DNA from: Acidimicrobiia bacterium
Lineage (GTDB): Bacteria > Actinomycetota > Acidimicrobiia > Spongiisociales > ZC4RG35
DNA length: 64,000 nucleotides
Assembly (NCBI GenBank): GCA_965216905.1
Contig: OZ244213.1
Span: 1,210,735-1,274,734, forward strand
Direction: 5' to 3'
Shown: in pieces, positions 1 through 7,978 of the stretch
Position numbering within the stretch: position 1 is the stretch's first letter
Layout: each line of letters opens with the position of its first letter
Notes under the pieces: model-generated
Seen by the model: only the letters and a program-made list of their open reading frames with translations
Told to the model about the DNA's origin: nothing
The model's database searches: none
Translations under genes and position numbers: made by a program

Positions 1-336
1 CAGGCGAGCGGGTCCCCACACGCGAAGCTGGCCGCAACACTCCGCCACGTGCTCCCCCCGAAGGTGGCCGGACCCATCGCGCTACTCGAGGCGACCGACT
101 TCGACGTGGTCGTCATGGCCCACTCCGGTCTCGACGGGTTCGCTCGCGTGTCCGACATATGGAGAGGCGGGATGGTGGGCACCGAGGTGCACGTCGATTT
201 CCGCCGAATTCCCCGCCGCGAGATTCCGGCCGACCGAGCCGGTCGAGAACGATGGATTCACCGGCTCTGGGTCGGGATCGACGTATGGGTCGAGGGCAAT
301 CGAGCCAGTCCGGTCCGTGGGCGATCAGGTGGGTGA
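1..336 (+). CDS. 3' end of a CDS that starts before the window; product unknown.
   Basis: Frame 1 is open from base 1 to the stop at 336. Composition is normal and it converges on the following minus-strand gene. No family recognised. Confidence 0.25.
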   Translation, partial: QASGSPHAKLAATLRHVLPPKVAGPIALLEATDFDVVVMAHSGLDGFARVSDIWRGGMVGTEVHVDFRRIPRREIPADRAGRERWIHRLWVGIDVWVEGNRASPVRGRSGG

Positions 337-356
337 CGGGCCAGGCGAGGTCGATC

Positions 357-1160
357 TCACCGGCGGTCGAGCGCCGCCACCAGGTCCTCGGCGCTCGCAG
401 CCCACTCGTCGGCTCCACATCGTTCGGCGACCGCGGAGTCGGTGATCGCGCTGCCACCCACGATGATCGCCACCGGTGGGCGGTGGCGGCGCAGCGCCGC
501 CACCGCCGCGGCCGCATCGTCGATCGCCTCGCGGAGGGTCACCGACAAGACCACCGCATTCGCTTCCGCCCGGGTGACGGCCGCCACCAGCGAATCGACG
601 GGGACCGCGCAGCCGAGGTCGTAGGTCTCCCAGCCTTCGAGCCGCAACAGATCGGCCAACATCGCCGTCGCCAGAGCATGCTGGTCGGCTGCCGGGGTCG
701 CCAGAACCACCCGACCCCTACTGCGGCCCCGCCGAGCAAACCGAGGGCTCAGGCGCCCGATCAGCCGCAGTGCGACCGCCGTGGCCAGATGCTCCTCGTC
801 CACGCCGATCTCGCCGGCCTCCCACCGCGAGCCAATCGAGTGAAGCGCCGGGGTCATCAGGCTGAGGTAGACGTCGGACGCGCTGGTACCGGACGCCATG
901 GCCGCCTCCACGACTCCCCAGGCGCCGGCCGCATCGCCGGCGATCATCCGCGATTCGAGACGCTCGGTCCAGTTCGCCGAGCCTCGCCCGACCGGACGAG
1001 TCGATGCTCCGAACGACTCCACCGCATCGGCCTCGACCACCCACTTGCCACCCGACTTGCTGGCAGGCAGCAATCCCAACCGCACGTATCGGTAGGCGGT
1101 CATGTAGTGCACGCCAAGGGCGTCTGCGGCTTCTTGAAGGGTCATGGAATCAGTGGACAT
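357..1160 (-). CDS. MerR-family transcriptional regulator with a C-terminal cobalamin (B12)-binding domain (LitR/CarH-like).
   Basis: N-terminal MerR HTH (LQEAADALGVHYMTAYRYVRLG). C-terminal Rossmann-like B12-binding domain with a DxHxx(G/A)-like motif (ADQHALA). 267 aa. Confidence 0.72.
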   Translation of the reverse strand: MSTDSMTLQEAADALGVHYMTAYRYVRLGLLPASKSGGKWVVEADAVESFGASTRPVGRGSANWTERLESRMIAGDAAGAWGVVEAAMASGTSASDVYLSLMTPALHSIGSRWEAGEIGVDEEHLATAVALRLIGRLSPRFARRGRSRGRVVLATPAADQHALATAMLADLLRLEGWETYDLGCAVPVDSLVAAVTRAEANAVVLSVTLREAIDDAAAAVAALRRHRPPVAIIVGGSAITDSAVAERCGADEWAASAEDLVAALDRR

Positions 1161-1217
1161 ACAAACTGGTTGTCTATATTATCACTAAACCCGCCCTCCG
1201 GAGAATCAGAGGCTTCC

Positions 1218-1514
1218 ATGAACGTCGAACTACCCATCCACGACGAGGAGTTGCTCCTCGAATGGCGCGACCTCGCCGCCTGCAACGCCGCCGATCCCGA
1301 TCTCTTCTTCCCCGCCGGGGAGACCGGCCCGGCTGCCGGCCAGATCCAAGCCGCCAAGCGCATCTGCGGCGGTTGCGACGTTCGCGAAGAGTGTCTCACC
1401 TATGCCATCGAGACCAACCAGGTGGCCGGGATCTGGGGTGGGGTCACCGAAGACGAACGGCGTCCGATTCGGCGCAAGTGGCTGGCGGAACGACGACGCC
1501 GCCGAGCTTCGTGA
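1218..1514 (+). CDS. WhiB-family (Wbl) Fe-S transcription factor.
   Basis: 98 aa. Four Cys (CNAAD...C..GGC...EEC), the GIWGG motif and a basic C-terminal tail, all typical of Wbl proteins. Confidence 0.85.
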   Translation: MNVELPIHDEELLLEWRDLAACNAADPDLFFPAGETGPAAGQIQAAKRICGGCDVREECLTYAIETNQVAGIWGGVTEDERRPIRRKWLAERRRRRAS

Positions 1515-1570
1515 ACTCGGATCCAACCGCCGGCCTCGCCGTCGACGTGCCGGTCGACCAGCTCCGTCGG

Positions 1571-2143
1571 ATGCGCGGCATGAACGCTGCCTATCACCGG
1601 CGCTTCTTCACCGACGTCTGGCTGACCGCCGGTTCCGTGCTGGCCCTCTTCGTCGCCGGAACCGCCCTATCGGACGTCCTCTTCCTCGCCATCCCGGTCG
1701 TGGCGCTGCTCGGGGCGAACCAGACGGCATTCGACGCCTCCTACCTGACGTTCTCGCGTCAGTACGCCGCCAGCATCGAGCGGGAACTCAACGACGCAAT
1801 CGGGGCAGATGTCCTCGTCGCCCATCGACTCGAGGCCGACTATCTCTACCCCCTCGGGGTGCGGAAGGTGGTGACCGTGCCAGTACGCGGCCCACTCACC
1901 TGGTTCGGTTTCATGACGTTCTTCTACACGGCGCTGGGTATCGCCGCCTTCGGTGTCGGTCTCGTCCTCGGAGTGCGGGCGCTGGGATGGGGGTGGGTTG
2001 CCGCCGCCTACCTGGTGGGCCTCGGCGGCCTGACCCTCTCGTCGCTGGCGACGGGAGGTTGGTGGTTCGTCGGCGGCGCCGGGGAACGCCGTCTCGAGGC
2101 CGTCCTCGACGGCTACCGAATCCCACCGGCTGCCGGGCGGTGA
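1571..2143 (+). CDS. Hypothetical polytopic membrane protein.
   Basis: About 190 aa with several hydrophobic helices (FFTDVWLTAGSVLALFVAG..., WFGFMTFFYTALGIAAFGV...). Start chosen at the in-frame ATG after the wbl stop. No family recognised. Confidence 0.45.
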   Translation: MRGMNAAYHRRFFTDVWLTAGSVLALFVAGTALSDVLFLAIPVVALLGANQTAFDASYLTFSRQYAASIERELNDAIGADVLVAHRLEADYLYPLGVRKVVTVPVRGPLTWFGFMTFFYTALGIAAFGVGLVLGVRALGWGWVAAAYLVGLGGLTLSSLATGGWWFVGGAGERRLEAVLDGYRIPPAAGR

Positions 2144-2144
2144 G

Positions 2145-3161
2145 GTGACCGCGCGGCCCGCGGCGACCGCGTTCTGTCAGAATCCCGACGTGATCGTCGA
2201 CGCGGCCCTCTACATCGACGGCCGGCGGGACCCGAAACCCTTCTCGCTCGCCGGTGCCCGCTCGGCCGCGCGCCGGGACGGCACCTTCTGCTGGATCGGG
2301 CTGTATGAGCCCGATGAGTCGGAGTTCGAATCGGTCCGCTCTGCCTTCGACCTCCACGAGTTGGCGGTGGAAGATGCCATCCAAGCCCACCAGCGTCCCA
2401 AGCTGGAGCTCTACGACGACACCCTGTTCGTGGTTCTCAAGCCGGCCCGCTACCTCGACGCGGAGGAGACGGTCGATCTCGGCGAAATTCTCCTGTTCAT
2501 CGACGACGACTTCGTCGTCGCGGTCCGCCACGGCGAAGCCAGCCAACTGATCACCGTCCGGTCGACGCTGGAGACGCAACCGGAGGAGTTGCGGATCGGC
2601 TCGGGCGCGGTGCTCCTCGCCGTGGTGGAGCGAGTCGTCGACGACTACACCCAGGTGCTCCTCGGACTCGAGAACGACATACGCGAACTCGAGAAGGAGG
2701 TGTTCTCGGAGACCTCCGGCGCTCCCACGGAGCGGATCTACAAGCTGAAGCGCGAAGTCGTGGAGTTCGCCCAGGCCACCAACCCGCTGCTCAGTCCCCT
2801 GGACCGATTGGCCAGGGGGCGGTTCGGAGCGATTCATCCCGACCTGCGGGAGTACTTTCGGGACACCCACGACCAGCTCCAGCGCCAGGTGGACCAGATC
2901 TCGACCTTCAGCGATCTTCTCACCTCGATCCTCGACGCCAACCTCACCCAGGTGGGCGTTCGCCAGAACGAAGACATGCGGAGGATCTCGGCCTGGGTGG
3001 CGATGGCGGCGGCGCCCACGCTGCTCGCCGCGGTCTGGGGCATGAACTTCGACCGGATGCCAGAACTCCAGTGGCGAATCGGATACCCGCTCGCCCTCGT
3101 GCTGATGCTCTCGATCAGCGGATTCCTCTACTCACGCTTCAAGCGGTCGGGCTGGCTCTGA
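2145..3161 (+). CDS. corA: CorA-family Mg2+/Co2+ transporter.
   Basis: 338 aa. Two C-terminal TM helices with the GMN motif (AAVWGMNFDRMPE) and a CorA-like acidic soluble domain. Confidence 0.85.
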   Translation: MTARPAATAFCQNPDVIVDAALYIDGRRDPKPFSLAGARSAARRDGTFCWIGLYEPDESEFESVRSAFDLHELAVEDAIQAHQRPKLELYDDTLFVVLKPARYLDAEETVDLGEILLFIDDDFVVAVRHGEASQLITVRSTLETQPEELRIGSGAVLLAVVERVVDDYTQVLLGLENDIRELEKEVFSETSGAPTERIYKLKREVVEFAQATNPLLSPLDRLARGRFGAIHPDLREYFRDTHDQLQRQVDQISTFSDLLTSILDANLTQVGVRQNEDMRRISAWVAMAAAPTLLAAVWGMNFDRMPELQWRIGYPLALVLMLSISGFLYSRFKRSGWL

Positions 3162-7393: not shown

Positions 7394-7978
7394 TCAGTTC
7401 TTCGGCGTGGAAGGCCGAGTCGCCTGCGGGGTGGTGGCCTGAGTCACCGACGTGGACGGCGTGCTCACGACGGGGGGATCGTCCGACTGACCGGGTGGAT
7501 CATCAGACTGCCCGGGGGGATCGTCCGGCTGACCCGGTGGATCATCAGACTGCCCTGGGGAGTCGTCGGACTGGCCCGGGGGCTCTTCCGGTGCATTCCC
7601 GCGCTCTTCGGCGATGTCCTGGCCGCGCGACCGCACCTCGTCGTACGCCTCGCCCAGGCCGCCGGCGGCCGACGGTGGCCTGGTGCCGTCGATGAGGTCC
7701 TGAAGCACCTCCTGGGCGGTCACGCTGGCCTCCCTGGCGCGAGTCGAGACGATCGAGTCGAGCGCCATGATCGCCTTGGCGAGACCCGCATCGATGGTCA
7801 CGTCGGAATCATGGTGATCGATCCGAGCCTGCGCGGCGACGGCCCCGGCTTCGACGCCCTGGATGGCCGCAGCCAGTTGCTGCGGGTCGACCGAGCTGGC
7901 GCCGGCCTGGCCGACCACCAGCAGCAGGGCGGCCGAGCCACCCAGCAGCGATCCAAAGAGACGCCGGATACTGAACAT
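7394..7978 (-). CDS. Secreted protein with a heptad P-G-Q-S-D-D-P repeat region.
   Basis: The N-terminus MFSIRRLFGSLLGGSAALLLVVGQAGA fits a signal peptide. A structured N-terminal domain is followed by five PGQSDDP repeats and an S/T/P-rich tail. Confidence 0.6.
   Translation of the reverse strand: MFSIRRLFGSLLGGSAALLLVVGQAGASSVDPQQLAAAIQGVEAGAVAAQARIDHHDSDVTIDAGLAKAIMALDSIVSTRAREASVTAQEVLQDLIDGTRPPSAAGGLGEAYDEVRSRGQDIAEERGNAPEEPPGQSDDSPGQSDDPPGQPDDPPGQSDDPPGQSDDPPVVSTPSTSVTQATTPQATRPSTPKN
7475..7579. repeat. Five tandem copies of a 21-bp unit (encoding PGQSDDP on the minus strand).
   Basis: Directly visible: gggGGATCGTCCGaCTGaCC / GGTGGATCATCAGACTGCCC alternating units from about 7475 to 7579. 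Confidence 0.8.

Follow-up and report, generated by a model that had tools for sequence, protein, structure and literature searches.

A 64-kb stretch of the genome of an Acidimicrobiia bacterium (contig OZ244213.1; the whole stretch analysed is called the window hereafter) carries a gene for a helix-turn-helix (HTH) protein with a cobalamin-binding sensor module, back to back with a WhiB-like gene, wbl. We favour, with a probability of roughly 0.6, the reading that this protein is a CarH-like, adenosylcobalamin (AdoCbl)- and light-dependent repressor of itself and of wbl, the membrane protein gene orf3 and perhaps the transporter gene corA. Observed features on which the reading builds are the domain architecture and fold, the ligand and photoreceptor motifs, a promoter with a conserved site, the conserved synteny and a gene context related to light.

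A B12-binding sensor joined to an excisionase-type domain

The regulator gene and its domains are placed as follows.

357..1160, minus strand: regulator gene, 267 amino acids (open reading frame, Pfam and structure model); the alternative annotated start at 1145 gives 262 amino acids
1011-1145, minus strand: HTH_17 domain, residues 6-50 (Pfam, 1.4e-10)
750-965, minus strand: B12-binding_2 domain, residues 66-137, a four-helix bundle with G110xxW113 and E123-H124 (Pfam, 2.8e-14)
369-716, minus strand: B12-binding Rossmann module, residues 149-264, with D159xH161xxA164, S206xT208 and G235G236 (Pfam, 5.6e-17)

The public annotation of an identical protein (P0001) begins at the ATG at 1145, with 262 amino acids. 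In favour of a start at the ATG at 1160, the orthologue of locus L122 opens with MSSDSM where the window protein has MSTDSM.

The initial annotation had described a MerR-type HTH joined to a cobalamin-binding domain, in the manner of LitR/CarH regulators, and had proposed to compare the C-terminal domain with B12-binding profiles. The cobalamin-binding part stands, as both profiles match with the values listed above and the His ligand H161 is kept. The MerR part does not. The HTH scores 41.7 bits against the excisionase-type HTH_17 model of Pfam (PF12728; cut-off 27) and 33 bits against the excisionase family of NCBIfam (TIGR01764; cut-off 28.8), whereas the Pfam MerR model reaches 16.4 bits, below its cut-off of 28.2. 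The CarH equivalog of NCBIfam (NF052513, TransRegCarH) gives 68.2 bits for a cut-off of 400, the B12 module alone being aligned. Residues 16-29 of the HTH read GVHYMTAYRYVRLG; the recognition helix is HYMTAYRYV, and the RxWERRY motif of the CarH recognition helix is not present in the regulator. In the AlphaFold2 (AF2) model, which has a predicted local distance difference test score of 92.3, the N-terminal domain adopts a beta-alpha-alpha-beta-beta-alpha winged-HTH topology, similar overall to the CarH type, and no MerR dimerisation coiled coil follows the HTH.

CarH-type photoreceptors are recognised by a Wx9EH motif, which separates them from other B12 binders, and by D/ExHx2G/P-x41-SxT/V-x22-27-GG, in which the His is the lower ligand (PMC9304148). 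The first is intact in the regulator (W113-x9-E123-H124), with the Trp and the His found in 103/103 relatives and the Glu in 102/103. The second reads D159-x-H161-x-x-A164, 41 residues, S206-x-T208, 26 residues, G235-G236. The ligand H161 as well as G183xxxP187, S206xT208 and G235G236 are invariant or nearly so among 103 family members. A light-responsive signature has also been defined as GxxW, EH, GxxH and GxxxP (PMC11796333); G110xxW113, E123H124 and G183xxxP187 are present, and the third element reads A158xxH161. The Trp is not followed by a His (W113-E114).

The best sequence match of the regulator in the PDB is CtMerR (8JBS, E 9.5e-21), which experiments proved to be light-responsive with AdoCbl (PMC11796333). 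The closest folds to the model are the photocobilin 8J2W (root-mean-square deviation of 1.7 A over 205 columns), CtMerR and full-length TtCarH, with which the model aligns over its whole length (280-295 columns). The label LitR/CarH-like thus describes the sensor module well, by its His ligand, its Wx9EH motif and its matches to CtMerR, photocobilins and TtCarH, but not the DNA-binding domain, which has neither a Pfam MerR match nor RxWERRY. The regulator belongs to a large family apparently confined to Acidimicrobiia, and some members are named 'light-induced transcriptional regulator' by JGI.

A conserved operator-like site between the regulator and wbl

The elements of the spacer and the gene that it precedes are listed below.

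1154..1159, plus strand: -35 hexamer TGGACA of the predicted wbl promoter, overlapping the regulator ATG (1158-1160, minus strand)
1177..1182, plus strand: -10 hexamer TATTAT of the predicted wbl promoter (promoter match)
1176..1189, no strand assigned: operator-like block ATATTATCACTAAA (core 1178-1189, ATTATCACTAAA), the single conserved block of ten aligned spacers
1218..1514, plus strand: wbl, 98 amino acids, a WhiB1-like paralogue (Pfam Whib, PF02467, 1.4e-23; 83.7 bits for a cut-off of 23.6)
1161..1173, no strand assigned: near-palindrome ACAAACTGGTTGT (ACAAAC-TG-GTTGT), within the 17-nt promoter spacer, with 5/6 arm pairs

The 57-bp spacer (1161-1217) contains 47% GC and its first 30 nt 30%, for 67.4% in the window; 1152-1192 is the sole stretch of the 64 kb in which 30-nt windows reach 34% GC or less. 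The spacer had been called strikingly AT-rich, and it holds the most AT-rich spot of the window; the sequence quoted for it, by contrast, was misplaced, since it begins at 1151, within the regulator coding region. The -10-like element noticed there corresponds to the TATTAT of a predicted sigma-70-like promoter, TGGACA-17-TATTAT, which fits 10/12 consensus positions and is part of the conserved block ATATTATCACTAAA. TGGACA or TGGACG occurs at the identical 17-nt distance in L082, L095, L122 and L003. Judging from its sequence, the best candidate for the -10 of the regulator gene is GATAAT/TAATAT (1176-1183, minus strand).

The block overlaps the -10 and the expected transcription start of wbl. 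Its conservation runs 7 nt past the -10 (CACTAAA), and the spacer and -35 flanks are variable. The family consensus, TTTAGYRCTAAA, is a 12-bp inverted repeat, TTTAG-YR-CTAAA, present singly or in two copies. The window contains one copy of the block, for 0.00 expected by chance, and a matrix scan for further targets returned no other site of at least 12 bits in the 64 kb. Over 1.09 Mb of related loci, 51 sites reach at least 15 bits and 29 at least 20 bits; shuffling in blocks that keep the local composition yields 3-10 and 0-1, respectively.

Each newly sampled regulator-wbl spacer contains a site outside the training of the matrix. Further sites of this kind occur upstream of genes for sigma factors of the extracytoplasmic function (ECF) type (L003, L023, L161, L169), of an acyltransferase-photolyase pair (L122) and of a heliorhodopsin-regulator pair (L079), and between or upstream of amine-oxidase or SDR genes (L068, L099). 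When an ECF sigma gene stands opposite the regulator, the site is the palindrome TTTAGTGCTAAA. At wbl-type promoters the site spans the -10 and the next 7 nt, and at ECF-type promoters its right half is the -10; this shift in position fits an operator better than a promoter element read by a sigma factor. Locus L079 (3097-4828) deserves mention for its heliorhodopsin gene (Pfam, 1.2e-99), directly upstream of the regulator on the same strand, with an operator-like TTTAGCACTAAT 26 nt ahead of the heliorhodopsin start.

The near-palindrome ACAAAC-TG-GTTGT, whose conservation upstream of orthologous wbl genes the initial annotation had made a test of its reading, does exist but is absent from the orthologous spacers. 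A repeat search does not report ACAAACTGGTTGT, and 53% of spacer shuffles contain an inverted repeat that is equal or better. Chance-level occurrence and lack of conservation rule it out as an operator.

Conservation of the pairing and of the light island

Related loci were sampled in three ways, by a genome scan (80 loci), through orf3 in metagenomes and through wbl homologues, with gene maps based on tblastn, Pfam and called genes. In the genome scan, wbl was nearby in 1/80 loci and the link looked unconserved. This count arose because 74 of the 80 loci belong to a sister group in which the regulator stands beside imuA'-imuB-dnaE2, and sampling through orf3 and wbl reversed the impression. 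In the window and about 15 related loci wbl lies opposite the regulator. The independent sampling through wbl homologues, at 76, 71, 69, 68 and 63% identity, recovered an HTH_17-B12 gene divergently upstream in 5/5 cases, with a photolyase gene convergent with the regulator at 4/5. The divergent pairing with a WhiB-like gene at 1218-1514, seen from the sequence at the outset, is therefore no accident of one genome. The genes found divergent from the regulator fall into four arrangements.

wbl-orf3, as in the window: L082, L095, L122, L131, L136, L145
SDR-wbl-orf3: L102, L113, L003
ECF sigma-RskA-orf3: L123, L147, L150, L157
orf3: L084, L023

The usual island comprises ECF sigma, RskA, acyltransferase, sometimes DUF1295, photolyase, the convergent regulator, the divergent wbl-orf3, sometimes corA, and then purA, purD and an AlkZ-like gene; the downstream synteny is the same in the window. 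A smaller group within the genome scan (L003, L023, L034, L068, L075, L079) shares with the window the motif upstream of the regulator; its regulator genes neighbour photolyase, acyltransferase, RskA anti-sigma, ECF sigma, SDR, CMAS-type methyltransferase, amine oxidase or heliorhodopsin genes.

The wbl product has the four cysteines of its family (C22, C50, C53, C59; C-Xn-C-X2-C-X5-C), a GIWGG turn at 71-75, an FFP motif and an Arg-rich RRKWLAERRRRR tail, and its best PDB match is WhiB1 of Mycobacterium tuberculosis (E 2e-24). A second WhiB type, P0224, 54% identical to the window protein, adjoins a PdtaS-like histidine kinase gene in L170 (4001-5769), with no B12 regulator nearby and no operator-like site at the locus. 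Adjacency to pdtaS is the known synteny of M. tuberculosis whiB1 (Rv3219-Rv3220c). Since it is P0224 that has pdtaS beside it, and not the window gene, we regard the latter as an island-specific WhiB1-like paralogue.

The sister group (most of L001-L080; for instance L008, 3900-4000, and L171, 5474-9551) includes Ilumatobacter coccineus. Its gene order is a 151-aa gene without Pfam match, the regulator, an MT3502_N (ImuA'-like) gene, an IMS (ImuB-like) gene and, further on, a PHP/pol III alpha (DnaE2-like) gene, which puts the B12-sensor gene at the head of a translesion 'mutasome' cassette. In many of these loci a TACGGT -10 is preceded, at a distance of about 20 nt, by a palindrome, GCTGCGTTACGCAGYG.

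Proposed mechanism and alternative explanations

In the dark, CarH acts as a repressor in the form of an AdoCbl-bound oligomer, and photolysis releases it (PMC9304148, PMC6739363). By analogy, an AdoCbl-bound oligomer of the regulator would sit in the dark on ATTATCACTAAA (1178-1189), where it would overlap the -10 and start of wbl together with the back-to-back -10 of its own gene and obstruct RNA polymerase. Once light had broken the Co-C bond by photolysis, the repressor would come off the DNA, allowing the wbl-orf3(-corA) operon and the regulator gene to be transcribed. The WhiB1-like iron-sulphur (Fe-S) protein could then act as a second-tier regulator of the response to light or photo-oxidative stress, beside the ECF sigma factor that holds this position in related genomes, or instead of it.

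Several points weigh against CarH-like repression. Binding to the site, use of AdoCbl, response to light and repression by this protein are all things that we infer. Ala164 takes the G/P position of the B12 loop, as in 11/103 relatives, and the window protein alone has Ala158 where 96/103 relatives have the Gly of the 'GxxH' light signature; its neighbour-joining position is, moreover, unstable between trees. CarH tetramers bind to 3-4 tandem repeats, but the window has just one 12-bp site. The photolyase gene that flanks most orthologues is missing at the window locus, and an Rfam scan of the window detected no cobalamin riboswitch, one tRNA being the sole match. Finally, the HTH sequence GVHYMTAYRYVRLG is also invariant in the 74 loci of the sister group, which are devoid of the TTTAGYRCTAAA motif, so that specificity of the domain for the motif cannot be argued from sequence.

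This last observation also lends some weight to the idea that the TTTAGYRCTAAA block is the target of another factor encoded in the light island or of an unlinked regulator, with the B12 protein as a member of the regulon or acting elsewhere; the protein is, after all, tied to the site by co-occurrence alone. We nevertheless hold it to be unlikely. The site adjoins the regulator gene in essentially every motif-bearing locus, whether wbl, SDR, ECF sigma, orf3 or heliorhodopsin lies opposite, an inverted repeat suits a dimeric HTH protein, and the displacement relative to the -10 between wbl-type and ECF-type promoters is what an operator would show. There is a slim chance that the regulator senses the supply of cobalamin rather than light, B12-replete cells repressing a corA-containing operon for cobalt/B12 homeostasis. 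The B12-binding fold is indeed shared by corrinoid proteins that are not photoreceptors, and corA lies 1 nt past orf3 in the window and is adjacent in L087, L102, L113, L131 and L136. However, corA is missing from the unit in L163, L165 and L167 and stands apart in L161, the conserved neighbours of the unit are photolyase, heliorhodopsin and other light-regulon genes, the photoreceptor motif Wx9EH is intact (PMC9304148), and the best matches in sequence and fold are photoreceptors.

An even slimmer chance is left for the absence of any regulatory link, the AT-rich spacer being two strong back-to-back promoters and the gene order inherited synteny. A good -10 hexamer does lie within the conserved block, and the flanking purA-purD-AlkZ-like synteny is conserved too. 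Two promoters would hardly account, however, for conservation continuing through CACTAAA while the spacer and -35 flanks vary, nor for the palindromic form of the block recurring at other island operons with a different promoter geometry. Activation in the light by remodelling of the promoter is very improbable. MerR-family proteins are often activators, and HTH_17 is part of the wider MerR/excisionase-like HTH group, but activation of the MerR type requires a site between the -35 and the -10 and an over-long spacer of 19-20 bp. The wbl promoter has a spacer of the optimal 17 bp, its -10 and start are overlapped by the conserved site, and the AF2 model has no MerR dimerisation coiled coil after the HTH; MerR-type activation of wbl was rejected on this promoter geometry.

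CarH-like repression remains our preferred reading. Beyond it, we put forward more tentatively, at somewhat less than even odds, that in Acidimicrobiia a dedicated WhiB1 paralogue is under the direct control of a cobalamin photoreceptor with an excisionase-type DNA-binding domain. A light signal would thereby reach an Fe-S, sigma-A-binding factor that might add a redox or photo-oxidative check, parallel to the ECF sigma of Streptomyces LitR-LitS or replacing it, and the same operator would join photolyase, heliorhodopsin and orf3 in one light regulon.

Comparison with known systems and significance

The regulator shares with CarH of Thermus thermophilus, Bacillus megaterium and Myxococcus xanthus the order of its modules, a winged HTH, a four-helix bundle with Wx9EH and a Rossmann B12 module with its His. 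CarH operators overlap core promoter elements (PMC9304148), as the conserved window site does, and in both cases the regulator gene adjoins its presumed targets. On other aspects the two differ. The DNA-binding domain is HTH_17, whose recognition helix has HYMTAYRYV in place of RxWERRY, a 12-bp inverted repeat forms the conserved site, in contrast to the tandem 11-bp direct repeats nnnnTnnACAn of CarH, and the window protein lacks the His after the Trp. Its presumed targets are wbl, orf3, ECF sigma, photolyase and heliorhodopsin genes, and no carotenoid genes were seen adjacent.

LitR of Streptomyces is an AdoB12 regulator with a partner ECF sigma factor, LitS (PMC11519972), and follows the same two-tier logic, in which a B12 photosensor controls a transcription factor gene. 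Its sigma partner is echoed in L123, L147, L150 and L157, where an ECF sigma gene with its anti-sigma is divergent from the regulator. In the window, by contrast, a WhiB-like Fe-S protein gene stands opposite, and LitR has a MerR-type domain. CtMerR of Chloracidobacterium thermophilum (8JBS/8JBT; PMC11796333) has GxxW, EH and GxxxP in common with the window protein, and both are without the second His; it comes from another phylum, bears another DNA-binding domain and has GxxH in place of the AxxH of the window protein. The paper on CtMerR describes neither its DNA site nor its target genes (PMC11796333). Photocobilins (8J2W, 8J2Y; PMC10979010) offer the closest fold to the B12 module, 8J2Y being from an Acidimicrobiaceae bacterium, but they carry a biliverdin-binding domain, in one case with a diguanylate cyclase, and no DNA-binding domain. 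WhiB1 of M. tuberculosis (5OAY, 6ONO) has the four Cys, the G[IV]WGG turn and the basic tail in common with the wbl product; the pdtaS-linked gene of Acidimicrobiia is P0224, whereas the window wbl is tied to the B12 regulator.

The combination of HTH_17 with B12-binding domains already appears in domain surveys (PMC8717448, PMC11796333). Our literature search found no description of an HTH_17-B12 regulator paired with wbl, of its operator or of its regulon, and no WhiB-like target of a B12-based photoreceptor. The targets known to be turned on by such photoreceptors are carotenoid genes, ECF sigma factors and photolyase. If the proposal is true, it would connect light to the Wbl family, for which little is known of the upstream signals except in mycobacteria and streptomycetes. 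It would also reveal a second DNA-binding solution for CarH-like sensors, HTH_17 with a 12-bp palindrome, which may serve optogenetic tools, and a compact and testable light regulon of Acidimicrobiia that includes heliorhodopsin and an uncharacterised membrane protein family. Acidimicrobiia are widespread in freshwater and marine metagenomes. With the candidate operator, promoter and protein all delimited to the base, direct testing is feasible at once.

Neighbouring genes and minor features

The remaining genes around the spacer are the following.

1511..2143, plus strand: orf3, 210 amino acids, helical membrane protein with no assigned family; GTG start codon overlapping the stop codon of wbl (GTGA, 1511-1514)
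2145..3161, plus strand: corA, CorA-like Mg2+/Co2+ transporter, beginning 1 nt past the orf3 stop
1..336, plus strand: 3' end of an acyltransferase gene, convergent with the regulator

wbl and orf3 are translationally coupled. Given their GTGA overlap and the 1-nt gap before corA, the three genes probably form one transcript. The orf3 product has no Pfam match even at E <= 1, and its homologues (n=419), restricted to Acidimicrobiia, are all annotated as hypothetical. Its AF2 model is confident and shows four long helices, for which a PDB fold search gave no match (best E 0.32). orf3 is the most constant member of the light island and its commonest partner gene in Acidimicrobiia; in the 80 metagenome loci it adjoins photolyase, acyltransferase, SDR, CMAS, amine oxidase or heliorhodopsin genes.

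In related loci the acyltransferase gene is part of an operon with ECF sigma, RskA, photolyase and, in some cases, DUF1295. In the window (336-357) the ends of the acyltransferase and regulator genes are 20 bp apart, the place where photolyase lies in L102, L122, L161, L163 and L167; L169 is likewise without photolyase between the two. Apart from the acyltransferase fragment at 1-336, the 64 kb contain no photolyase, SDR, CMAS, amine oxidase, heliorhodopsin, second wbl or second B12 regulator gene.

An 8-nt perfect inverted repeat, TCATGGAA / TTCCATGA, flanks the spacer at 1142-1149 and 1214-1221. TTCCATGA surrounds both the wbl ATG and the second ATG of the regulator (1145), probably by chance. 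Farther away, at 7394-7978 on the minus strand, a crude gene call predicts a secreted protein with a tandem PPGQSDD repeat at its C-terminus.

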